NCBI GenBank assembly: GCA_964591795.1
Contig: CAZQEL010000011.1
Span: 1 to 28,005 of the forward strand
DNA length: 28,005 nucleotides
Source of the DNA: an uncultured archaeon
GTDB lineage: Archaea > Iainarchaeota > Iainarchaeia > Iainarchaeales > CSSED10-239
Direction: 5' to 3'
This document shows positions 13 to 26,575 of the stretch, in pieces. Under the pieces are notes generated by a model that saw only the letters and a list, made by a program, of their open reading frames with translations, searched no databases and had not been told where the DNA came from. A program made the translations under genes and the position numbers. The stretch's first letter is position 1. The number at the start of each line of letters is the position of its first letter.

Positions 13-582
13 ATGGTATTTTTAATATTATATAAATATCCTTTTTATCTTTTAAATTCTAAAAAAAGAAAGATTGATGATGAATTTAAAAAAACAATAA
101 GACATTTAGCTGTTTTAAGAGATGATAATTTAACCATAACTGATGTTTTGAATGTTTTTAAAAACTTAGAAACTAATTTTTTTTTAAGTAAAGAAGCAAA
201 AAAAATAATTTCTTTAACAGATTATAATCATAATTTAAGAGATACTTTTAAGTCTGTAATAAATGAAAGTTTTTCTGAAATAGAAAAGAACTTTTTTAGA
301 AAATTAATAGATGTAATAGATAAGAAAGAAAATTTAGATCATGTTGTTTTAGAATTTTTAAATAATCTTGAACAGTCTAGAAGAGAAATTAGTGAACAAA
401 AGAAAAGTAGAGTTAATTTATTATTTTTAGTGTCAATATTTTTATTTTTTATATTTTTAACCATTTTAATTATTTTGTTTGTTATTCTTTCAACAAGTAT
501 TTATTTAAAACAAGCATTATTGTTTTTTTCAATTATATTTTCAGTTATAGAATTTGTGCTTGTAATTATTTTATATAAATAA
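13..582 (+). CDS. Type IV filament platform protein half (T2SS-F / TadB / FlaJ-like), probably 5'-truncated by the window edge
   Basis: Frame 1 stays open back to base 1 (TFGF precedes the first Met), so the true start is probably upstream of the window. Layout is a hydrophobic N-terminus, a soluble helical segment (DEFKKTIRHLAVLRDDNLTITDVL...) and C-terminal TM helices. This is the same layout as 13412..14158, which follows a secretion ATPase. Family call is by eye. Confidence 0.5.
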   Translation: MVFLILYKYPFYLLNSKKRKIDDEFKKTIRHLAVLRDDNLTITDVLNVFKNLETNFFLSKEAKKIISLTDYNHNLRDTFKSVINESFSEIEKNFFRKLIDVIDKKENLDHVVLEFLNNLEQSRREISEQKKSRVNLLFLVSIFLFFIFLTILIILFVILSTSIYLKQALLFFSIIFSVIEFVLVIILYK

Positions 583-588
583 AAACCA

Positions 589-1737
589 ATGAGTTATATT
601 ATGGATCCAGAAAAAAATTTTGTAAATAAACTTAATGTTAAATTACAATTATTTTTGTATAGCTATGAGTATCAAATATTAATTCTTGCGAGTATTTTTT
701 CTGGTCTTTTAATTGTTTATATTGCAAATAATTATTTTATTTATACATCTTATTACTATTATTTATTAATTTTTGGAATAATTGTAAGTTGTCTTGGATT
801 TGTTTTAGAAAATATAATTAAGCATTTTAAAAAGAAAGCAATTGAAACTTCTTTTAATTATTTTTTGCAAGATTTATCTAGAGAATATAAAATAACAAAT
901 AATATATCTTTAGCTTTAATAAATATAAATAAAGCTAACGCATATGGTTCAATTGATAGTGAAATAAAAAGAATAGCAAATAGAGTCTCTTGGGGAGATG
1001 ATTTTGAAAATGCACTATTAAGTGTTAATGAAACTATTAAAAGTCCAATTATTGATCACACTTTAGTGCTATTACATACTTTTAAGGATAGCTCAATACC
1101 TCTTGATAAAGTAATTTTTAATATTTCTAAAGACTTAACTGTTTTTAAAGAAGAAACACAAAAGAAAAAATATTTTCTTAATCTTTATTATTTATCCATA
1201 GTATTGTTTTTTGTGTTTTTATTTGTAATACTTTTTGTTAATATTTTGTTAGGTACTAACTTTTTATGGTATGGAAATGAGCAACTTGTAACTAGAATTT
1301 TTTTTGATAATTTCCTATTATATATTTCAATCTTGCTTAGTATGTTTACAGCGTTTATAATGTATTCAATTAAGGAAGAAAATAATTTTAATTTCATAAA
1401 ATATGTGTTTATATTTTTCATAATAACTCTTTTACTATTTCAAGTAGTTGTGCCAAAACCAGATGCTGAAAACGTTTTAATTGATACCTTAACGTATATG
1501 AATGCTAATAATTTGAATGATATTAGTATAGATAGTATTATTGCATTAAAGTCAATTAGTTCTAAGTATATTTTAGATAAAACTTACAGTGATACTTTGT
1601 ATTTTGTGCCAATGGACGAGAAAGATTGCGGGCTTGTCTGTGCTGAATATGTTATTTTCATTCCTGATGCAGTTTTCTTAAATTTTGAAATTATGAAAAA
1701 TGAAACTAATTTTGTAATTGCATATAAATTTATATAA
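589..1737 (+). CDS. Type IV filament platform protein half (T2SS-F / TadC / FlaJ-like) with a C-terminal non-membrane extension
   Basis: ATG lies 6 nt after the previous stop. It has an N-terminal TM pair and a soluble helical segment (ETSFNYFLQDLSREYKITNNISLALININKA...IKRIANRVSWGDDFENALLSV). More TM helices follow, then a tail of about 95 aa containing CGLVC. Confidence 0.5.
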   Translation: MSYIMDPEKNFVNKLNVKLQLFLYSYEYQILILASIFSGLLIVYIANNYFIYTSYYYYLLIFGIIVSCLGFVLENIIKHFKKKAIETSFNYFLQDLSREYKITNNISLALININKANAYGSIDSEIKRIANRVSWGDDFENALLSVNETIKSPIIDHTLVLLHTFKDSSIPLDKVIFNISKDLTVFKEETQKKKYFLNLYYLSIVLFFVFLFVILFVNILLGTNFLWYGNEQLVTRIFFDNFLLYISILLSMFTAFIMYSIKEENNFNFIKYVFIFFIITLLLFQVVVPKPDAENVLIDTLTYMNANNLNDISIDSIIALKSISSKYILDKTYSDTLYFVPMDEKDCGLVCAEYVIFIPDAVFLNFEIMKNETNFVIAYKFI

Positions 1738-1746
1738 TTCAGCAAA

Positions 1747-2097
1747 TTGATTTTTATGATTAAAGTAAATAATAAAATATTAATTAAAAATACAAAAGTA
1801 TTAAGTTCTTTAAATCAAGGATTAGGGCTTATGTTTTATCCACGTAAAAAATTTAATTTTGGTTTAATTTTTGAAAGACCAACTGAGTCAATAGTCGGTT
1901 CTTCTATACATATGATATTTGTATTTTTCCCAATTAATGTACTTTTTTTAAATTCAAAAAAAGAAATTGTAGATATTAAATTAAATTTAAAACCATTTAG
2001 ATTATATGTTCCTAAGAAAAGGGCAAAATACATTATCGAATTTCCTGTAGAAACAGATTTATCTAACATTAAATTAAAAGACAATATTTCTTGGTAG
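1747..2097 (+). CDS. DUF192 (COG1430) family protein
   Basis: The track start is TTG; ATG at 1756 (MIKVNNK) is an alternative start. GLGLMF, IHMIFVFFPINVLFLNSKKEIVDI and AKYIIEFPVE resemble the conserved blocks of DUF192 as I remember the family. Size (about 115 aa) fits. Confidence 0.6.
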   Translation: MIFMIKVNNKILIKNTKVLSSLNQGLGLMFYPRKKFNFGLIFERPTESIVGSSIHMIFVFFPINVLFLNSKKEIVDIKLNLKPFRLYVPKKRAKYIIEFPVETDLSNIKLKDNISW

Positions 2098-2220: not shown

Positions 2221-2754
2221 ATGGTTTTAAATAAAAAAGCAATTTCAGCTATAATTTCTGTAGTTTTATTAATTCTTGTAACTTCTGTTTTAGTTGCTGG
2301 TTTTTTATCTTGGTCTAAAGCATCTACAAGAGATAAATTAGATATTTCAAAGGATCAATTACAATCTATTTCAAACAGTGAATGTATGAAATACAATCTT
2401 GTGATTGAATCTTGTAGTCTTGATTATGATACTGGAAAGGTAACTTTACTTTTAAGAAATCCAACTCCTGTTGATTTTAAGAATCTTACTTTAACCTTAA
2501 AAGGAAAATCTCAAGGAAGTAATGAAATTTTAAAAATTTTTGGAAAGTTTGATTCTAGTGTTGATGCTGGTGAAATTAAATATTTATCAACAGATAATAA
2601 TTTTACATTTACTACAAATGATGTGAATGTATCTGAATCAAAAGTAATTGATCCATTTAACCTAAAATCATTTACTTTAACAACATCAACTTGTCCTAAA
2701 AAAGTTATAGATCTTAAAAGATGTGCTGTTAATCTTCCTGATTTTGAAACTTAA
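2221..2754 (+). CDS. Archaeal type IV pilin-like protein (class III signal peptide); ends at a TAA that is in frame with the next ORF
   Basis: N-terminus MVLNKKAISAIISVVLLILVTSVLVAGFL has a short basic leader, KKA-IS, and then about 20 hydrophobic residues. This is the archaeal prepilin (class III) signature cleaved by PibD/FlaK-type peptidases. About 150 aa of beta-rich sequence follow. Confidence 0.7.
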   Translation: MVLNKKAISAIISVVLLILVTSVLVAGFLSWSKASTRDKLDISKDQLQSISNSECMKYNLVIESCSLDYDTGKVTLLLRNPTPVDFKNLTLTLKGKSQGSNEILKIFGKFDSSVDAGEIKYLSTDNNFTFTTNDVNVSESKVIDPFNLKSFTLTTSTCPKKVIDLKRCAVNLPDFET

Positions 2755-4128
2755 ATTTTATCTCCATCTAATGCAGAAAATAAGAGAGTAAATACTTCAA
2801 TTGATTTTAATTCTAGTTATGTATTTAATGATGGAACTGTTAGTTGTGAATGGTATCAAACAATAGATAGTGGTTCTCAAGTAAGAATGAATCCTTCTGA
2901 TACAGATTGTAATACTAGTTATTCTTTTACAACTGTAGGAACTTATGATGTTTTACTTGTTGCAACAGACGATTTTAATACTTCTAATGATCAAATAACT
3001 CTTGATTTATGGGATGCTTTTTCAGGTGAAATTACAGAACCTGTTGATGGTACAAAATATAATATTAATAAAACTATTATTTTAAAGTCATTATTTGATA
3101 ATAATATGTCTATTGTTTCATGTGATTGGAGTCACAAAGAATCAGGACTTTCAACATATACTTCTTTTAGTACTGATTGTAATACAACTTATTCATTTAC
3201 AGATGTTAATAGTTTTACAATTAAATTAGATTCAAATGATATAGGTGACTCTTCTTTGTTATCTGAAACAATTGATTTAAATATTTTAGATGATTTAAAT
3301 TCAACAATAACTCCTCTTTCAAGAAGTATATGGAATAATGATGAATCAATCTCTTTTACTGGTACATATGATAATAATATTTCAACTGTTACTTGTGAAT
3401 GGGTTTCAAATTTAAGTGATGTTAATACTACAAGAGGAACTGATTGTTCATCTTTAAATTATACTTTTTCATCTACTGGAGTTTATACAGTTTTTTATAA
3501 AGTAACAGATTCAGGTACTAGTGATATTGCAATTTCAAGTGTTGATTTTAATGTTTATAATCCATTGACTGGAACCACATCTTCACCAGCATCAAGTTCA
3601 ATATATAATTTAAGTGAATCTATAACTTTTACAGTTTCTCCAAATTATAATTTAGGTGTTGTAACCTATCAATGGCAATATAATAGAGATAGTTTAGGTT
3701 GGACTGATTTTGGTACAAATTCAGTATCAATAAGTATTGGTTTTGCAACTGCAGGAACTTATCAATTTAGAGTTTCTTTAACTGATGCTGATAGAGTTTC
3801 ACCAATTAACCAAGTTTATTCAAATACTATTACTGGGGTTATTATTAGTGATCCATTATCTGTTAGTATTACTGCACCTACAACAGGAACTGCATATGAT
3901 ACTGACGCTAATATAAGTTTCACATCATCCGTTAGTAATGAAGTTTCAGGAGTATTATCATATAGTTGGGAATATAGTACTGATGAAAATAATTGGGTTG
4001 TTTTTGGAACAAGTATATCTAATCCATCCACTTCTTTTGCAACTTCAGGTACAAGATATATTAGAGTAACTGTTGAGGATGGTGCTACAAGAACTGCAAC
4101 TAGTTCTTCAATTACAGTAAGTATTTTA
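2755..4128 (+). repeat. Five tandem PKD-like domain repeats (about 88-96 codons each) at protein level
   Basis: Approximate unit boundaries are 2755-3012, 3013-3288, 3289-3558, 3559-3846 and 3847-4128. Units 1-3 share the Cys pair (VSCEW / VSCDW / VTCEW ... DCNT / DCNT / DCSS). Units 4-5 replace it (VTYQW, LSYSW) but keep F-x-T-x-G-T-Y/R. Confidence 0.7.
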
Positions 4129-4671
4129 GCTCCACCTTTAATTGATATAACTAGTTTTAGTAATTTAACAGGTTGGACAGTAGTAGGTGGAGCTGTTTCA
4201 GTTACTGGTGGGTATGTTTATAAAGATCCATGGTATGATCCAAATTCATTTGTGTTTCAAGGTTCAACAACTCAAGGTAATGTAGTTATTGAAGGTATAG
4301 TAAATGATGGTGGTAGTGGTGAAGGACAACAAATGGGTTACCTTTTTAATTATGGTAGTTCTTCAGCAACATATATATGTTATATAGATAATGATTATTA
4401 TGATGATGGACTTTATTTATATTATAATACTACACAATTAGCATCAGAAGTAGTTGGTTGGGGTGGTGTTGATTCTAGTCAATATAATATTAAAATAGAA
4501 GCTTTTGGTGATTCTAAAAAATGTAAATATTGGAAAGTTGGTGATTCTGAGCCTGATACTTGGGGAATAAGTATAACTCATTCAACAAGGAATGTTGGAC
4601 AATGGGGATTTTGGATTAAGGATGATGGTGATGGTAAAGTTCATTCAATAAAAGTTACAGATTATACTTAA
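2887..4671 (+). CDS. PKD-like repeat surface adhesin with a C-terminal concanavalin-A/LamG-like lectin domain
   Basis: The annotated Met lies inside a repeat unit, and the frame is open from 2755. No signal peptide of its own is present. The repeat signature is I-x-F...C-[ED]-W...DC-N-T-x-Y-x-F...G-x-Y-x-V...V-x-D. The C-terminal ~180 aa (GWTVVGG...GQWGFWIKDDGDGKVHSIKV) look like a beta-sandwich lectin/glucanase-like fold. Confidence 0.7.
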   Translation: MNPSDTDCNTSYSFTTVGTYDVLLVATDDFNTSNDQITLDLWDAFSGEITEPVDGTKYNINKTIILKSLFDNNMSIVSCDWSHKESGLSTYTSFSTDCNTTYSFTDVNSFTIKLDSNDIGDSSLLSETIDLNILDDLNSTITPLSRSIWNNDESISFTGTYDNNISTVTCEWVSNLSDVNTTRGTDCSSLNYTFSSTGVYTVFYKVTDSGTSDIAISSVDFNVYNPLTGTTSSPASSSIYNLSESITFTVSPNYNLGVVTYQWQYNRDSLGWTDFGTNSVSISIGFATAGTYQFRVSLTDADRVSPINQVYSNTITGVIISDPLSVSITAPTTGTAYDTDANISFTSSVSNEVSGVLSYSWEYSTDENNWVVFGTSISNPSTSFATSGTRYIRVTVEDGATRTATSSSITVSILAPPLIDITSFSNLTGWTVVGGAVSVTGGYVYKDPWYDPNSFVFQGSTTQGNVVIEGIVNDGGSGEGQQMGYLFNYGSSSATYICYIDNDYYDDGLYLYYNTTQLASEVVGWGGVDSSQYNIKIEAFGDSKKCKYWKVGDSEPDTWGISITHSTRNVGQWGFWIKDDGDGKVHSIKVTDYT

Positions 4672-5840: not shown

Positions 5841-7019
5841 ATGTACTTATTTTTATTTGGAAGGGATTATAAACTATCAACTTTAGAGGTTTTGTCCTAT
5901 TTTAAATCAAATAATATTTCTTATTCTTTAATTTCAACAACTACTTCTTATGCAATTTTTGATTTTAAAGGAATTAAGTTTAATTTTAAAAAAATTTTAA
6001 ACGAGTTAGGTGGAATTACAAGAATATACAGAATATTTTATAAATCTGAAAAATTCAGTGCTGATTTTTTAAATAAATTTGATGTTAATTATCCTAAAAA
6101 ATTTAATTATTCAATATCTTCTGTAAATATTACAGTTAACCAAATTCAATTTATAACAGAAACTTTTAAAGAACAATTTAAATTTGAAAAAACAAAAGCA
6201 GTTTATAAAAAACCAAAAAAACAACAGGATAAAAAAGAGAATACAATTGTTAATCCTCATAATTATTATTCTTATGGTTTAGATAAAGGTTTTGAGCTTT
6301 TTGTTGGAAAGCATTATGGTATTTATTATTATGGTATAGCAATTGAATGCTATGATCCAAAAGAATTAATTGCAAAGGACACATTAAGACCAATGCAAGA
6401 GAAATTACATTCAACTTCTTTTAGACTTACAAAAATAATGATTAATCTTTTAGGTTTAAAGAAAGGTAAAAAAATTTTAGATCCTTTTTGTGGTCTTGGT
6501 ACTTTTTTAATTGAAGGATTATATCAGGGTTATCAAGTAATTGGTATTGATAAAGATAGAGATATGGTTGTTAAATCAAAAAAAAATCTTATTTGGGCTA
6601 TTGGTAATTTTAAATTAAAAGATAATTTTACTGTTTTAAATGGGGATTCTTCAAAATTAAATTTTACAGTAGATGCTGTTGTTTTTGAACCCTATATGGG
6701 TCCTTTTATAAATAAGCTTCCAAATGCAGAAAGAGTAAATAATATTATAGGTACTTTAAAACCATTATACAGTAATTTATTTAAAAACCTATATAATAAT
6801 TTAAAACCAAAAACAAAAGTTGTATTTATTCTACCTGAATTTAAAACATATGATGGAAAAGTATTTGGAGTTACAGAAGATGTATTTTTAAGAAATGGTT
6901 TTGGTTTTTATGATTTTAAAAAAATCAATGCTACAATTGATATTAAAAATCCTGTTTTTTATCAAACTCCAAACGATTCCAAAATTAACAGGTATATATA
7001 CATTTTAGAACGTAAATAA
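5841..7019 (+). CDS. Putative tRNA (guanine-N2)-methyltransferase, Trm11/Trm-G10 (UPF0020)-like
   Basis: N-terminus MYLFLFGRDYKLSTLEVLSYF resembles the Trm11/Trm-G10 N-terminal domain. SAM motif I is ILDPFCGLGTFLIEG..GYQVIGIDKD. The motif IV position reads VFEPYMG instead of canonical DPPYG. Confidence 0.55.
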   Translation: MYLFLFGRDYKLSTLEVLSYFKSNNISYSLISTTTSYAIFDFKGIKFNFKKILNELGGITRIYRIFYKSEKFSADFLNKFDVNYPKKFNYSISSVNITVNQIQFITETFKEQFKFEKTKAVYKKPKKQQDKKENTIVNPHNYYSYGLDKGFELFVGKHYGIYYYGIAIECYDPKELIAKDTLRPMQEKLHSTSFRLTKIMINLLGLKKGKKILDPFCGLGTFLIEGLYQGYQVIGIDKDRDMVVKSKKNLIWAIGNFKLKDNFTVLNGDSSKLNFTVDAVVFEPYMGPFINKLPNAERVNNIIGTLKPLYSNLFKNLYNNLKPKTKVVFILPEFKTYDGKVFGVTEDVFLRNGFGFYDFKKINATIDIKNPVFYQTPNDSKINRYIYILERK

Positions 7020-7596: not shown

Positions 7597-8049
7597 ATGT
7601 TTTCAAATATGTTATTTGCAGCAACAAATTTTGCAACAGATCCAGCTGCTATTGGTGGTTTAATGGGTTTAATTGCTGGAATGGTTGTAGTTGCAATAAT
7701 TGTTGGTATTGCTTTATACATATATATGGCTTTAGCGTTACAAACAATTGGAAAAAAATTAAATTATAAAAATAACTGGCTTGCATGGATACCTATTGCA
7801 AACTATGCAATGATATTAGAACTTGGTGGTTTTCATTGGGCATTAGTATTTTTGCTTTTAATACCATTTTTAGGTTGGGCAGCAGTTGCTGTGTTACAAT
7901 TCATTGCGCTTTGGAGAATTTTTGAAAAAAGAAATTATCCTGGATGGTTAATTTTAATACTTTTACTAAGTATTATTCCACTTTTAGGATTTTTAGCAAT
8001 AATTGCATACCTTATAATTTTTGGTATGGTAGCTTGGAAAGATAGATAA
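7597..8049 (+). CDS. Small polytopic membrane protein (paralogue A)
   Basis: SD aaGGGGG lies upstream. It has 4-5 TM helices. It shares TIGKK..Y..W.AWIP, IFEK.NYPG.L and IIP.L...A.IAYLII.G..A.K with 8144..8596. It resembles the DUF5684-type family from memory; this is unverified. Confidence 0.6.
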   Translation: MFSNMLFAATNFATDPAAIGGLMGLIAGMVVVAIIVGIALYIYMALALQTIGKKLNYKNNWLAWIPIANYAMILELGGFHWALVFLLLIPFLGWAAVAVLQFIALWRIFEKRNYPGWLILILLLSIIPLLGFLAIIAYLIIFGMVAWKDR

Positions 8050-8143: not shown

Positions 8144-8596
8144 ATGGTTTTTAATCTTTTTGAAAATGTTTATTTTTATTTGAGTGTTTTTTTAACATTT
8201 ATTTTAGTATATGTTTATGTTGCTTACGCTTGGCATACTATTGCAAAAAAACATAAATATCGAAAATATTGGATCGCATGGATACCTTTAGTTCAGTTTT
8301 TTTTATTACCAATCTTAGCTAAGAAAAAATGGTATTATGGTTTTGTATTTATTTTACCTTTTATTTTTTTAATTTTACCAAACTTTAAGGGATATGGTTT
8401 AATATTATTTTTACTTAGAATTGTTTGTATTTATTTTATTGTATCTTGGAGTTGGTATATTTTTGAAAAGCAAAATTATCCTGGATTTTTAAGTTTAGTT
8501 GTAATTTTATTTATTATTCCTGTTCTTAATATATTTGCATTTATTGCTTATTTAATAATATTAGGGTTTATTGCTTTTAAAACTAAAATTAAGTGA
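8144..8596 (+). CDS. Small polytopic membrane protein (paralogue B)
   Basis: SD tGGGTGa lies upstream. It is exactly the same length (150 aa) as 7597..8049 and carries the same conserved blocks. Confidence 0.6.
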   Translation: MVFNLFENVYFYLSVFLTFILVYVYVAYAWHTIAKKHKYRKYWIAWIPLVQFFLLPILAKKKWYYGFVFILPFIFLILPNFKGYGLILFLLRIVCIYFIVSWSWYIFEKQNYPGFLSLVVILFIIPVLNIFAFIAYLIILGFIAFKTKIK

Positions 8597-11642: not shown

Positions 11643-13400
11643 ATGTATCTTAAACCAAAATCAAAGATTTCAAAAGATGTTCATTTATTTCTAAATTGTC
11701 CTTACAATTTTAAATACAAAGATATTAAAGTAATATTTAACTGTGTTAATTGTAAAAATGCTCCTTGTATTTCAGCTTGTAAAAAAAATGCAATTTTTTA
11801 TATTTCAGATGGAATCGTATCTATTGATAAGAATAAATGCGATGGTTGTGGGGATTGTGTTTTAGCGTGTCCTTACAATGCTATTGTTTTAAATAAAAAA
11901 AAAGCTTATAAATGTGATTTATGTGCTTTAAGTTCTTTTTCTATGTTTTGTTATAAAAACAATAAGAATCTTTTAGAGTTAATAGATGATTATTCTCAAG
12001 ATGAAATTGATGTTATTTTAAATAGATACCTTGGTTATAAAATACTTTCATTTAAAGAAAATTTTCTAAGACAAATTTCTCTAAATATTATTGAAACAAA
12101 AGACAATATTAAAAATTATGTTGTGTATCATCCTGATTTATCACTTCAAGAAATTGAATTAATAAATTTTATTCTTGATTCATATAAGGATAAATCAGAA
12201 TTTATTGGAAAACTATCTAAAGAAAAAATTAAAGCGGATATTGAAAATGAACTTATTGATTATTGTTATATAAACAATATTGAGTTAGAAGAAGATCAAT
12301 TTAATTATATATTAGATGTTTCATTTAAAAATCTTCATGGGTATGGACCATTAAGTGATATCTTGAGTGATAATAATTTAGAAGAAATAGTGCTTCTTGG
12401 AGAAAACAAACCCTTGTTTGTTTATCATAAATATCATGGTTGGCTTGAAACTAATTTGTTATATACTTCTTTACAAATTATAAAAAATTTAATTAATAAG
12501 CTTTCCTGGCATTCTAACAAATATATAACTTTAAAAAATCCAATTTTGGATACTTATTTAAAAGATCATTCTAGATTGAATGCTTTGATTAATCCAATTA
12601 CTGAAAGTGCATCAATAACTATTAGAAAATTTTCAGAAAAGCCATTTACTATAAAGGATTTAATAAAATTTAATACTATTTCAAAAGAAGCTTTAGTTTT
12701 TTTAAGTTTATGTTTTTTAACAGATTTAAATATTATTGTTGTTGGTAATACTGGTTCTGGTAAAACAACTACATTAAACACATTACTTTCTTTTGTGCCA
12801 TTAAGTGAAAGAATTGTTGTTGTTGAAGAAGTACGGGAAATTAATATACCTCATAAACATAAAGTATTTACGTTAGTAAATCCTGAAATAGGAGTTACTT
12901 TAGAACATCTTGTTATTAATACTTTAAGAATGAGGCCTGACAGGGTTGTAATTGGAGAAATTAGAACTCGTGATGAATCAAAATATTTAATTGAATCCAT
13001 GCTTTGTGGTCAAGCAAAAGGAACATATACAACTTTTCATTCTCAAACTGCTAATGAAGCTTTACTAAGATTTAAATCATATGGTGTTTTAGAAACAGAT
13101 TTAGGGGTTGTTGATATAATTATCACACAAAGAAGATATAATAAATACACAAATAAAAAATCTATTGATTTAAGAAATATTACTGAAATTTGTGAAGTTA
13201 TTTTCGATGATTCTTCTTTAAAATTAAATAAATTGTTTGAATTTGATGTTTTTAAAAACAAATTAATTAAAAAAAATGATCCGGTTAAAGTGTTAGATAA
13301 ATTTAAAATTGCTTTCAATATAAATTCAAAAAAAGATTTAATTAATTTTTATAAAAAACAAGAAAAAGTTATTGATGGAATTTTAAATTCAATAAAATAG
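11643..13400 (+). CDS. Type II/IV secretion / archaeal type IV filament ATPase (FlaI/PilB/VirB11 superfamily) with an N-terminal DmsB/NrfC/CooF-type [4Fe-4S] ferredoxin module
   Basis: Cys motifs are CVNCKNAPCISAC, CDGCGDCVLACP and KCDLC-x8-C (nt ~11697-11951). Walker A is GNTGSGKTT (nt 12744-12770). EEVREI, RPDRVVIGEIR and the His box TFHS are also present. Confidence 0.85.
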   Translation: MYLKPKSKISKDVHLFLNCPYNFKYKDIKVIFNCVNCKNAPCISACKKNAIFYISDGIVSIDKNKCDGCGDCVLACPYNAIVLNKKKAYKCDLCALSSFSMFCYKNNKNLLELIDDYSQDEIDVILNRYLGYKILSFKENFLRQISLNIIETKDNIKNYVVYHPDLSLQEIELINFILDSYKDKSEFIGKLSKEKIKADIENELIDYCYINNIELEEDQFNYILDVSFKNLHGYGPLSDILSDNNLEEIVLLGENKPLFVYHKYHGWLETNLLYTSLQIIKNLINKLSWHSNKYITLKNPILDTYLKDHSRLNALINPITESASITIRKFSEKPFTIKDLIKFNTISKEALVFLSLCFLTDLNIIVVGNTGSGKTTTLNTLLSFVPLSERIVVVEEVREINIPHKHKVFTLVNPEIGVTLEHLVINTLRMRPDRVVIGEIRTRDESKYLIESMLCGQAKGTYTTFHSQTANEALLRFKSYGVLETDLGVVDIIITQRRYNKYTNKKSIDLRNITEICEVIFDDSSLKLNKLFEFDVFKNKLIKKNDPVKVLDKFKIAFNINSKKDLINFYKKQEKVIDGILNSIK

Positions 13401-13411
13401 ATTTGATAAAT

Positions 13412-14158
13412 ATGATTGATTTATATTTAATTAAAACCTATATATTTAATAAAAAAACCTGTACTCTTTTTTTAATAGTTTATTTTACAATAATGTTGAT
13501 TTTTTTTTTGATTGACTCTGTGATTGTGCCTTTGTCCTATGCTTATTTATTTAATATTTTTATTATGGTTTTTATAGTTTATTTTTTTGTAGTTTTTTTT
13601 CTGTATAAAATAAAAACTCAAAATTATCAACGTAAAATTAATAAAGAAATTCCTTTCTTTTTAAATAATTTGGCTAATGATATTGATAAAAATATTTCAT
13701 TGAAAATTGCTTTAGAAAATAGAATTGATGATTCATTAATTGGTTTTAAAATTAAACTAGTTATGCATAAGGTAAATACTTTAGGTTATTCACTTTCTGA
13801 ATCCTTAATTTCAGTAGGTATTGAGAATACAAATTTAAAAAGAGTATTTTATCAAATTGAAGATATTATTTCAACAGGTTCTAAAAATAAAGCTGATGCT
13901 TTAAGAACATTATCATTAAGTATAACTGAAAAACAAAATTATTTATTAAAAGATTATTCCACAAAATTAAGTTTGTTATCTTTAATATATATTGTTGTAT
14001 CTGCTATTGTGCCTGCTTTATTTTTAATGTTTCTTTTAGTTGGTAGTAATTTTCTAGAAATTTCTTTTTCACCAATAACTGTGATTTTTGTAATTGTAGT
14101 TTTATTTCCAATCATTGATATGTTTATATTTTTAGTTATGAAGGCTAATTTACCTTAA
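13412..14158 (+). CDS. Type IV filament platform protein half (T2SS-F / TadB / FlaJ-like)
   Basis: It sits directly downstream of the ATPase. The track start is TTG 13403; an ATG is at 13412. TM helices are followed by a soluble segment (KINKEIPFFLNNLANDIDKNISLKIALENR...) and then C-terminal TM helices. Confidence 0.6.
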   Translation: MIDLYLIKTYIFNKKTCTLFLIVYFTIMLIFFLIDSVIVPLSYAYLFNIFIMVFIVYFFVVFFLYKIKTQNYQRKINKEIPFFLNNLANDIDKNISLKIALENRIDDSLIGFKIKLVMHKVNTLGYSLSESLISVGIENTNLKRVFYQIEDIISTGSKNKADALRTLSLSITEKQNYLLKDYSTKLSLLSLIYIVVSAIVPALFLMFLLVGSNFLEISFSPITVIFVIVVLFPIIDMFIFLVMKANLP

Positions 14159-14178
14159 ATTAAACGAGATTTTTAATT

Positions 14179-14880
14179 ATGATAAATAAAATAAAATATT
14201 TTTTATTTAAAGATTATTTGTTTTCACTTAAAATAAAAAATTTAGATAATGGTTTAGTTGATGATATTTTAAGAATTTCAAGTGTTGTTAGATCTAATGA
14301 TTTAAAAGTAATTTTAAGTAAACTTGCAGCATCAAATAATAAATTAATTTCAAGAGAGTTTACTCTAGTTTTAACTAAAATTAATAAAGGACATAATCCT
14401 AAATATATTTTTAAAAGTTTAAAAGACAAATATAATTCTGAATTATTGTCTAAATTTTTAGATCTTTTAGATTATTCAGTTTCAACTGGGACTGTAACTT
14501 CTAAAGACTATAAAAATATAGTTAATGATTTTTTGAGATCACGCGAAATTATTGATGAAAGAAATTCAATTCTTTTAATGCAAAAATATACCATTATTTT
14601 TGCAGGTGGGGTAATTGTTCCTGGTATTTTAGGGGTTGTAATTTCTTTGGTGAGAAGTTTAACTGGTATTGTTGATATATCAGTTGTTGGTTTGACTTCT
14701 AGTGCGTCTTTATTTTTAGTAAGTTATTATTGTTCCATTATATATATTATTGAATATGTTGTAATTTCAGCAGTATATTTAGCCCATTTAGATGATAATT
14801 CAAAAAAGTTTTTATTATATCTCTGTTTTTTACTTCCCACAAGTCTTTTAATCTTTTTTGTATCTATATATATAATTTGA
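14179..14880 (+). CDS. Type IV filament platform protein half (T2SS-F / TadC / FlaJ-like)
   Basis: A soluble helical N-terminal region (DDILRISSVVRSNDLKVILSKLAASNNKLISREF...) is followed by TM helices. Together with 13412..14158 it would equal one two-domain FlaJ/PilC. Confidence 0.6.
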   Translation: MINKIKYFLFKDYLFSLKIKNLDNGLVDDILRISSVVRSNDLKVILSKLAASNNKLISREFTLVLTKINKGHNPKYIFKSLKDKYNSELLSKFLDLLDYSVSTGTVTSKDYKNIVNDFLRSREIIDERNSILLMQKYTIIFAGGVIVPGILGVVISLVRSLTGIVDISVVGLTSSASLFLVSYYCSIIYIIEYVVISAVYLAHLDDNSKKFLLYLCFLLPTSLLIFFVSIYII

Positions 14881-15637: not shown

Positions 15638-15709
15638 GCCCCAGTAGTCTATCGGTTAGGATGCGACCCTGTCAAGGTTGCGGGACGGGTCCGACTCCCG
15701 TCTGGGGCG
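15638..15709 (+). tRNA. tRNA-Asp (GTC)
   Basis: Acceptor gccccag/ctggggc. Anticodon stem cgacc/ggttg with loop ctGTCaa. T arm acggg-tccgact-cccgt. Discriminator G, no encoded CCA. It is a GC island in AT-rich DNA and is followed by a T-run. Confidence 0.92.
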
Positions 15710-15895
15710 CTTTTTATTTCTTTTTTTTATTTTATTATAATAATTGATCATTTTTTGCTTATTTTTCGTATTGTTTCGCTTTGTTTCCCTGAACCTATTT
15801 AAATACAAAAATTCATAGGTTTTGTATAACTTGAGGTTTTAACCAAACTTAAGCAAGTTATTTTTTGTTTAAAAAAATTAAAAGGTGAAAATAAA

Positions 15896-18433: not shown

Positions 18434-18516
18434 GCAGAGGTGGCAGAGTGGTCAAACGCGCTAGCCTGCTAAGCTAGAGTCTTACGACTACACGGGTTCG
18501 AATCCCGTTCTCTGCG
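18434..18516 (+). tRNA. tRNA-Ser (GCT)
   Basis: Acceptor gcagagg/tctctgc. Anticodon stem ctagc/gctag with loop ctGCTaa. It has a long variable arm. T arm acggg-ttcgaat-cccgt. Discriminator G, no encoded CCA. Confidence 0.92.
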
Positions 18517-18768
18517 CTTATTTTTTCTTTTTTTTAAAGTTAGTTTTAAAAAGAAATTTTTTATTTATGAAAAATATTTTAAGCAAATTAAAGCTTTTTT
18601 AAAAATTAAAAAATGCTATTTGTTTTAATTGATTTAAATAAAATTAAATAATTTTTTTAAATTGATTTTTTATTCTATTTTTAGGTTTTTACCTTATTAA
18701 AATATTCTATTTAAATATCTTTTCATATTATATATAATTAGTAAATTTATAATTTGAGGTGAAAATTA

Positions 18769-19718: not shown

Positions 19719-19800
19719 GCAGGGTTTCCCGAGTGGTCAAAGGGGATGGACTCAAAATCCATTGCTTAGTGCTTCGCAGGTTCGAATCCTGTACCCTGCA
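19719..19800 (+). tRNA. tRNA-Leu (CAA)
   Basis: Acceptor gcagggt/accctgc. Anticodon stem atgga/tccat with loop ctCAAaa. It has a long variable arm. T arm gcagg-ttcgaat-cctgt. Discriminator A, no encoded CCA. Confidence 0.92.
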
Positions 19801-25658: not shown

Positions 25659-25680
25659 TCGTTGCTTTTATTATTTGTAT

Positions 25681-25910
25681 AGGCTAACTGGGGGGTTTGT
25701 AGTCCTCTGTTACCGGAAATCTATATATGCCGGAGTGATTACTATTGGAAGGAAAATAAGCAAAAGAACTTTCTTTGTAAAATTGCTGATAGTTCGTCCA
25801 GTAAGAGCGAATGTCTTAGCTAACCCTGTGAGATCTGGAAGGAAGCAGCAGTATTCTAAGTGTTTGTTGCTTATTGGGGCGCGGACTTGAGATTTTATAA
25901 AGCTCTTTGT
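25681..25910 (+). ncRNA. ffs: Signal recognition particle RNA (archaeal 7S RNA); ends approximate
   Basis: The helix 8 core is gagatctGGAAggaagcagcag (25830-25851), the universally conserved GGAA tetraloop plus AGCA symmetric-loop motif. Flanking pairings are cttag (25815-19)/ctaag (25856-60) and aataagca (25756-63)/tgcttatt (25868-75). The 5' text gggggtttgtagtcctctgttaccgg is Alu-domain-like. It is a GC island and a T8 run sits at 25910-25917. Confidence 0.8.
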
Positions 25911-26575
25911 TTTTTTTAACTGTTTTTCGACTAATAGGTGCCTGTACATTTGATATTTTTCTATTTTTTTGTTATATTCTTATTTATTTTAGGTCATTAT
26001 TGTATTTTTAACTAATTAAACTACATAAATTTAGTTAACTTTTAAGGTTTAATTGAAATAGAGTGTATTTTAGACTTTATATGGATTTTTATGTGTATTA
26101 TTTAGGTTATAAATGTATTTTTAGTTATTTTTTATAATTTTTTATAGTTTTTGCTATATTTTCATATATATTGTATATATTTATACATATAGGTTATAAT
26201 TTTAATTTTGTTAAAGTTTATTTATTGTTTAATAATTTATAAATTATTAATTAGCCTTATTTGTTGGACATTATAAATTATATTTTATTATGTTTAATAT
26301 TTTTAAAGGAATTTTAATAAATAAACATGAATTTGTAGTTGATATTTTTGAAGAAGAAATAATATTAGATTTTAAATTTAAATATTTTATTAATTTGGTT
26401 ATTGCAAAATTAGTTTTAAAAAAATAGAGTGCTAAAAACATTAAAATAATTATGATAAAAATTATTAATTTATTTATATATTCTCGTCTTTAGTATATTT
26501 ATTTTTCGAAAATATATAATTTTATTATTATATCTTTAAAAACATTTATATCATTAGTTATATAGTGATTATAAT

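Follow-up and report, generated by a model that had tools for sequence, protein, structure and literature searches.

Why does the reading frame of an archaeal pilin continue, past its stop codon, into an adhesin-like protein? This question is raised by the window analysed here, a stretch of 28,005 nucleotides (positions 1-28,005 of the forward strand of contig CAZQEL010000011.1, assembly GCA_964591795.1), in which a pilin-like open reading frame (ORF) starting at 2221 is followed by a 594-residue ORF with PKD repeats that ends at 4671. An earlier note, made from the letters alone, read the two as one frame broken by a single TAA and offered three explanations: (a) a recent nonsense mutation, (b) a base-call or assembly error and (c) programmed partial readthrough of the TAA. 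Our analysis supports the first one. It is probable that a recent nonsense mutation in the hinge has truncated a modular pilin to a plain pilin, and that the adhesin-coding part is now a fresh relic. The frame and its parts are as follows.

2221 to 2751, forward strand: pilin module of 177 residues, signal peptide and helix plus beta-sandwich head, in a pilus operon
About 2221 to 2316, forward strand: class-III-type signal peptide and hydrophobic alpha-1 helix, N-terminus KKAISAIISVVLLILV
2725 to 2766, forward strand: inter-module linker, residues about 169 to 182, poorly conserved and predicted to be disordered; it holds all three linker lesions described below
2752 to 2754, forward strand: in-frame TAA; comparison with the relative L005 gives TTA (Leu) as its source, through a single T>A change
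2755 to 2886, forward strand: 44 open codons, the N-terminal half of PKD-like repeat 1, with no start codon and untranslated unless the TAA is read through
2887 to 4671, forward strand: the 594-residue ORF as called, with an artefactual start within GSQVRMNP
2755 to 3030, 3031 to 3306, 3307 to 3576, 3577 to 3867 and 3868 to 4137, forward strand: five immunoglobulin (Ig)/PKD-like repeats, from Pfam and internal repeat alignment
4138 to 4668, forward strand: C-terminal ConA-like lectin or carbohydrate-binding beta-sandwich module of 176 residues, from AlphaFold2 and Foldseek
4669 to 4671, forward strand: authentic terminator of the gene, ACT TAA A, identical in context to the internal stop

Is it really one frame? 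Translation of frame 1 from 2221 to 4671 gave 817 codons, and codon 178, the TAA at 2752-2754, is the sole internal stop, which bears out the claim of a single broken frame. The 44 codons after the TAA encode ILSPSNAENKRVNTSIDFNSSYVFNDGTVSCEWYQTIDSGSQVR, in full agreement with the text given in the earlier note. With the local base composition, 44 random codons would stay open with a chance of 0.02 and 638 random codons with a chance of about 2e-25; open stretches reaching 44 codons amounted to 3% in the other five frames of the region. No in-frame ATG, GTG or TTG is present within 2755-2886, and because of this the ORF finder restarts at ATG 2887 and calls the second ORF from there.

The called start is in the middle of a domain. 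Met 2887 is residue 45 of the frame starting at 2755, and the PF00801 PKD model spans it, with residues 19-83 of that frame matching profile positions 14-78 of 80. When the protein is started from Met 2887 alone, the match shrinks to profile positions 49-78. Repeat 1, which begins at ILSPSN right after the TAA, aligns end to end with repeats 2-5, and the invariant Trp of the CEW motif in this alignment sits upstream of Met 2887. The PKD profile and the repeat alignment thus agree with the earlier proposal that codons 2755-2886 are the missing N-terminal half of repeat 1. Met 2887 is also an internal residue of the conserved motif GSQVRMNP, which was found in all intact orthologues. The N-terminus of the 594-residue ORF is not hydrophobic (maximum Kyte-Doolittle 15-residue mean of 1.07, vs 3.16 for the upstream ORF), and the Pfam and hydrophobicity results together confirm that it starts mid-domain without signal peptide, again as proposed. 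The 594-residue ORF is a gene-caller artefact which starts at an internal Met.

The upstream ORF appears to bring a class III signal peptide and a pilin-like domain, as the earlier note had said, based on the KKAISAIISVVLLILV N-terminus, its hydrophobicity and the structural model, though the TIGR02537 (arch_flag_Nterm) match of this N-terminus is below the cut-off (16.2 bits with a cut-off of 20, E=0.0055, residues 4-26). PF07790 (Pilin_N) matched five of ten family members at profile positions 1-30, all of them below its 25.2-bit cut-off and the best at 22.4 bits, and a Pfam scan of the window pilin protein gave no match. By eye, the motif KK-AISAIISVVLLILV is consistent with an archaeal pilin N-terminus. 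The AlphaFold2 model of the pilin, with a predicted local distance difference test (pLDDT) score of 67, shows a helix at residues 6-32, a beta-sandwich at 61-154 and disorder at 170-177 (pLDDT <50), and the whole beta-sandwich head comprises residues ~56-168. Foldseek with this model found no PDB match at E<=1e-3; the weak fold matches included the archaeal pili 6w8x and 8fk7 and FlaF 4p94 (best E=8e-3, template modelling (TM) scores 0.3-0.5). A profile search of the pilin module against PDB sequences matched no solved structure. Four cysteines, C55, C65, C158 and C168, are invariant across the pilin modules and lie in two close pairs, the second directly before the linker, which suggests two putative disulfide staples in the pilin head.

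For the stalk, both PF18911 PKD_4 (32.3 bits, cut-off 27) and PF00801 PKD (25.6 bits, cut-off 23.5) scored above their gathering thresholds. The AlphaFold2 model of the lectin module is all-beta (pLDDT 73.6, predicted TM score 0.76), and Foldseek against the PDB returned 198 matches at E<=1e-3, the best of them with TM scores of 0.5-0.62. The top folds were CBM66 (4b1m), the phage Dit CBM2 (5ly8), GH43 C-terminal domains, galectins and the L-type lectins VIP36 and ERGIC-53; no Pfam or other sequence signature was found for this module. The module presumably binds glycans on a host cell or a surface. The ancestral product is probably an archaeal modular pilin with pilin, hinge, PKD stalk and lectin head.

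What stands at the stop site in relatives? Syntenic orthologues were found in Iainarchaeia (Diapherotrites, DPANN), including the complete Candidatus Forterrea multitransposorum genome and two Iainarchaeum metagenome-assembled genomes (MAGs). Six orthologous lineages have an uninterrupted protein, with a full length of 813-815 residues, or of 933-934 residues with another C-terminal module. The order in the intact orthologues of 813-815 residues is signal peptide and pilin, short disordered linker, five PKD-like repeats and ConA-like lectin module. Two loci, L009 (6001-8802) and L010 (7506-9806), share the pilin and PKD parts and have at the C-terminus a Cadherin-like plus Gly_rich_2 part of about 300 residues, not the lectin. 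Another locus, L027, is a mosaic that resembles Forterrea in the 5' 1.3 kb and L006 in its 3' part. Such mosaic alleles and swapped C-terminal modules point to a probable exchange of cassettes by recombination.

At the column of the window's stop, the intact orthologues have L, F, D, D, L and F. The closest relative, L005, is 82% identical and reads ACT TTA ATT TTA vs ACT TAA ATT TTA in the window. Judged by this alignment, the TAA of the window arose through one T>A substitution and is a derived, unconserved state, because L005 has TTA and the intact orthologues have sense codons. The check that had been proposed for 2752-2754, an alignment of orthologues, thus gave a sense codon in all intact relatives and no conserved stop, and this evidence favours a recent nonsense mutation. 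For strain variation at the same site, the allele was found on one contig only in the protein collection, and scans of metagenomes and genomes gave no closer relative.

Is a pilin of 177 residues a normal protein? The profile search with the pilin module gave 67 representatives, 39 of them at E<1e-10. About 15 of these 39 are stand-alone pilins of 163-179 residues that end a few residues from the conserved C-x-V motif, and about 24 are extended at the C-terminus and reach 259-2867 residues in all. Many stand-alone pilins end at this boundary, and therefore the 177-residue product is a normal form for the family. Stand-alone and longer paralogues occur together in one operon of a more distant genome, and the L010 genome has a stand-alone pilin paralogue of 175 residues (6320-6847) upstream of its own broken gene. 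In L005 a second, diverged pilin copy (4403-4624) begins 430 nucleotides past the first gene and runs off the contig. Neither of the two tandem-copy arrangements is present in the window.

The same boundary is broken in other lineages too. Ca. Forterrea has a 174-residue pilin ORF, one in-frame TAA and a 596-residue PKD ORF called from the same internal Met. Its lesion is CAA>TAA, two codons upstream of the window's in the ungapped alignment, and its relatives have CAA. All eight loci that were fetched, which stem from separate samples and records, have this same TAA, and the complete genome record CP045477.1 is one of them; differences among these eight loci were zero, so that no ratio of nonsynonymous to synonymous polymorphism was computable. 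The third lineage is L010, an Iainarchaeum MAG (GCA_037441475.1), in which a 2-nucleotide deletion in the linker puts the PKD part in the +1 frame, and the gene region was identical in a Logan assembly. The three linker lesions are 21, 19 and 18 codons past the conserved TCP anchor, which is the same 4-codon stretch hit by three types of mutation. A mutational hotspot as cause of this clustering was rejected, since the lesions are T>A, C>T and a 2-nucleotide deletion.

Two further lesions are outside the linker. L027, a near-identical sister allele of Forterrea, has its own 7-nucleotide deletion in the second PKD repeat, and in L005 the lectin module is frameshifted by an A6>A4 change. A whole-family profile search was used to lessen ascertainment bias, and it found the L027 lesion; the L005 lesion was found by inspection. 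In all, five lesions were counted in 11 lineages, with none in the pilin module, three in the hinge and two elsewhere. For at least three of five lesions to be in the 12-codon linker among 646 post-pilin codons, P=6e-5, and with a post-hoc window centred on the first lesion P=7e-4. The clustering of lesions at the hinge is non-random, and from these alleles the adhesin part appears to be an element that is repeatedly being inactivated in relatives. P0080/L028, a candidate for a further truncation, was rejected, since it is half of a gene whose remaining half is on another contig of L016's assembly.

We propose the following course of events. The ancestral pilin would enter the pilus through the upstream T2SSF platform by means of its class-III signal peptide and its hydrophobic helix, with the beta-sandwich head, a flexible linker of ~10 residues, the stalk of five PKD repeats and the distal ConA-like lectin following in order. 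One T>A change in the lineage of the window would have turned the linker Leu codon TTA into TAA. Translation would stop there and give a plain pilin of 177 residues, with a size and end-point normal for the family, and the 638 downstream codons would be a very young relic that has not yet decayed. Since a cut at the hinge would remove the adhesin cleanly and keep a working pilin, it could be tolerated or favoured, as a convergent shedding of the adhesin, and cuts away from the hinge would be rarer or short-lived. The short product is then presumably a functional pilin, the downstream part is presumably not usefully expressed, and selection rather than chance would place the lesions in the linker.

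The age of the stops bears on this proposal. Forterrea and L027 differ at eight positions in ~1170 nucleotides around the site, and one of the eight is the TAA/CAA base. The Forterrea stop is at most about 0.7% nucleotide divergence old; it is so young that the intact downstream frame is expected without selection. Pairwise dN/dS (the ratio of nonsynonymous to synonymous divergence) by segment and outgroup-polarised branch counts showed no clear relaxation, with low power, as the stops are much younger than the branches.

Several observations weigh against a recent and simple loss of the adhesin part. No second lesion is seen in the 638 codons after the window stop. That frame has 308 one-step paths to a stop, and the chance that 638 unconstrained codons remain open is 0.36 at 1% neutral divergence and 0.13 at 2%. 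The nonsynonymous to synonymous count on the window branch after the stop is 18:13, below the neutral 3.4:1 (P=0.013), and the branch counts in general are below neutral (P=0.013 and 0.004), where the stops are maybe far younger than the branches. The split of the window from L005 has a synonymous divergence (dS) of 0.13-0.27; either the window stop is much younger than this split or the region is still selected, and these data do not separate the two. Three fresh linker lesions with no decayed remnant among 11 lineages exceed a simple neutral supply, and this excess needs either positive selection with short-lived alleles or a retained function. Both non-hinge lesions are on single short contigs and are possible assembly errors, and mosaic recombination blurs the independence of the lineages.

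One rival reading is a functional gene with two products. The TAA would be read through rarely by a near-cognate tRNA, so that a short major pilin and a scarce 816-residue adhesin, capping or decorating the filament, come from one gene, and selection would keep the downstream frame open. We consider this unlikely, though it agrees with several of our results: none of the three lineages with a disrupted linker has lost the open frame downstream, relaxation of constraint was not detectable on the window or Forterrea branches, and the lesions cluster where both products would be well formed. No other pilin of the family is nearby in the window and the intact relatives, so a short pilin could be useful, and modular pilins are thought to be located at the tip, where a low ratio is enough (PMC8179133). 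However, the stop is not conserved, the sister sequences having TTA and CAA, and the youth of the Forterrea stop explains its intact frame without selection. The relatives with lesions inside the adhesin part (frameshifts at other positions in L005 and L027, an outcome that the earlier note had named in advance as evidence against readthrough) show that the adhesin is dispensable.

The tests of recoding gave the same answer. The context of the internal stop, ACT TAA A, is that of the gene's own terminator, and A follows 7 of the 17 genuine TAA stops in the window. TAA closes 17 of 27 gene ends there, with all three stop codons in use; an alternative genetic code with TAA reassigned was ruled out by this count and by the normal length of FtsZ, L10e, NDK and threonyl-tRNA synthetase (ThrRS). 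Folding downstream of the stops gave z-scores of +1.2 in the window, +1.0 in L010 and -2.4 in Forterrea, so that in the window and L010 this RNA has less structure than the shuffled controls, and no shared RNA structure was found downstream of the stops in the disrupted lineages. The Forterrea hairpin (L001 5893-5968; -26 kcal/mol, z=-2.4) lies ~31 nucleotides past the TAA, within the first PKD repeat; the intact relative L006 has a weaker form of it (z=-0.4) and the window has none. L010 would need a frameshift at its junction CCT GCC TGA A, in which direct reading found no slippery re-pairing. No suppressor tRNA was found within the window, the only tRNAs being the ordinary tRNA-Asp(GTC), tRNA-Ser(GCT) and tRNA-Leu(CAA), and the Rfam scan of the window gave only these and the RNA of the signal recognition particle (SRP), with nothing near the stop. 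A 2021 review of archaeal recoding treats readthrough for selenocysteine (Sec) and pyrrolysine (Pyl) only and never mentions UAA (PMC8211752). Programmed readthrough is unsupported, as none of its testable defining features was found, because the stop is unconserved, its context is ordinary, no structure is shared and TAA is the main stop. Option (c) of the earlier note is unlikely on these grounds.

A broader form of the same idea takes the linker stop as a convergent dosage device in three lineages, giving mostly plain pilin and a trace of tip adhesin by readthrough or frameshifting. We give this only a small chance. If true, it would be the first functional UAA readthrough in archaea and the first control of pilus composition based on recoding.

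A switch at the level of the population is also improbable in our view. Here the truncation would be reversible, selected when the adhesin is a liability (e.g. as a receptor for a virus or host) and reverted by back-mutation or homologous recombination, with the relic as a reservoir. The disruption of 5 of 11 lineages would agree with it, and so would the mosaic alleles, in which the C-terminal module is exchanged between relatives; one lesion is in a poly-A run and decayed remnants were not seen. Recombination is reported to shape Forterrea populations (PMC5905446). But the window and Forterrea lesions are point substitutions in non-repetitive codons and not changes of a repeat tract, which gives no sign of repeat-mediated phase variation. 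Moreover, the Forterrea TAA is in every fetched locus and no intact allele was seen, though consensus assemblies could mask minor alleles.

An error of sequencing or assembly in the window, with TTA as the true codon and the gene intact, is very unlikely. The allele is known from a single contig and differs by one base from the sister sequence at this codon. Yet substitution errors in a consensus are rare, there is no homopolymer at the site, and the error must have hit by chance the very linker of four codons in which two other lineages, known from several records, have genuine breaks. Nor is an error needed to explain the stop, given the parallel Forterrea TAA in all eight loci. Gene fission, with the PKD-lectin part translated alone by re-initiation after the TAA or from Met 2887, can hardly be credited: both parts remain open and in L010 a TTG of the downstream frame overlaps the region of the upstream stop, but in the window the 44 codons after the stop have no start codon, Met 2887 is a conserved residue inside domain 1, and a product without signal peptide or anchor would be an extracellular adhesin that can be neither exported nor attached.

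A recent hinge mutation remains the preferred explanation, and the surroundings of the gene fit with a pilus locus. The neighbouring features are these.

13 to 1737, forward strand: two T2SSF platform genes (13 to 582, cut by the window start, and 589 to 1737), PF00482 with E=5e-10 and 2.5e-6, both above the curated cut-off
1747 to 2097, forward strand: DUF192 gene, PF02643 with E=2.5e-9
15638 to 15710, 18434 to 18517, 19719 to 19800 and 25676 to 25948: RNA genes for tRNA-Asp(GTC), tRNA-Ser(GCT), tRNA-Leu(CAA) and SRP RNA, in that order

The platform genes are directly upstream, in the same operon as the pilin gene, and this gene order is kept in all orthologous loci. Prepilin peptidase genes (Peptidase_A24/Arc_PepC_II) are upstream in the orthologous loci L006, L009 and L010. 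The two T2SSF genes are adjacent in the same frame (stop 580-582, start 589), which is a coincidence, as their L001 orthologues are in different frames. In the window, as in every orthologous locus, the DUF192 gene separates the T2SSF genes from the pilin gene, and its protein may be an undescribed accessory of the pilus system.

The window has about 23% G+C, with archaeal SRP RNA, FtsZ, ThrRS and L10e present; the three tRNAs and the archaeal SRP RNA (110 bits) confirm that it is archaeal. A second gene set resembling a type IV filament system is at 11643-14880. It includes a T2SSE ATPase of 585 residues whose N-terminal part is a 4Fe-4S dicluster ferredoxin domain (Fer4 families, E down to 4e-9). 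Two membrane proteins come next, of which only the second matched T2SSF. The fusion of a ferredoxin domain with a secretion ATPase is unusual. Tandem paralogous multi-pass membrane proteins of 150 residues are encoded at 7597-8049 and 8144-8596, and the gene at the matching position in related loci has a weak DUF5684 match.

It follows for annotation that the 594-residue PKD protein and its Forterrea counterpart GW835_01340 are 3' relics of a pilin gene rather than proteins in their own right, and should be flagged so. In a wider sense, Iainarchaeia, which belong to DPANN, appear to build modular type IV pilins with a PKD stalk and a lectin-like head, an archaeal counterpart of the bacterial ones, and a role of the modular pilin as a tool for host attachment is plausible. 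The repeated hinge cuts in related populations amount to a natural experiment, on a small scale, in how a module is shed. Were the long form still produced in small amounts, archaea would have a new kind of recoding; the present evidence points the other way.

Among known systems, the modular pilins of Streptococcus sanguinis are the nearest in architecture, PilB with a vWA module and PilC with a ConA-like lectin module (PMC8179133, PMC9934059). As in these, the protein starts with a small pilin module and continues, over a short linker, into a bulky adhesive module of a type not confined to pili, and many different modules are grafted across the family (259-2867 residues). The present gene differs in that it is archaeal, with an archaeal-type N-terminus and a beta-sandwich head vs the bacterial alpha-beta roll, and has a stalk of five PKD domains between pilin and lectin. 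By the definition of a modular pilin as one polypeptide (Raynaud et al. 2021), the intact orthologues belong to this class, whereas the window gene, with a TAA between the modules, does not. The published survey of modular pilins used the bacterial signature IPR012902, and archaea are never mentioned in the paper (PMC8179133).

With the archaeal type IV pilins of Saccharolobus and Pyrobaculum (6w8x, 8fk7) and with FlaF (4p94), the gene shares a putative class-III-type N-terminus, a predicted long hydrophobic helix and, after it, a predicted Ig-like beta-sandwich, as well as the operon with T2SSF and, in orthologous loci, the A24/Arc_PepC_II peptidase. The sequence signatures are, however, below the curated cut-offs and the fold matches are weak. 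The locus also looks like known archaeal recoding (Sec at UGA, Pyl at UAG and the -1 frameshift in Saccharolobus solfataricus fucA1), in which two annotated ORFs correspond as a fusion to full-length homologues (PMC8211752, PMC1616953). The interrupted alleles of fucA1 have both the slippery site and the stem-loop conserved (PMC8211752, PMC1616953). In contrast, the window stop is UAA, unconserved and without slippery site or shared structure, and such a stop is <1% old in the one datable case, Forterrea.

The split pilin of Geobacter offers another comparison: PilA-N, the polymerising N-terminal part of a type IV pilin, and PilA-C, its C-terminal part, are encoded in adjacent ORFs in some lineages and fused in others. 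Each of the two is expressed and has a function, and their split is of ancient date and conserved. Unlike these, the downstream half in the window lacks both a start codon and an export signal, and the present family was split recently and independently. Recurrent loss of function is known for surface adhesins and receptors, as independent inactivations of different types in related populations. In the present family, by difference, the lesions are at a domain hinge and the pilin core is retained instead of the whole gene being lost. A gene truncated by a nonsense mutation is ordinary, and what is modestly new at this locus is the archaeal modular pilin as such, together with the convergent loss of its adhesin by breaks at the hinge.

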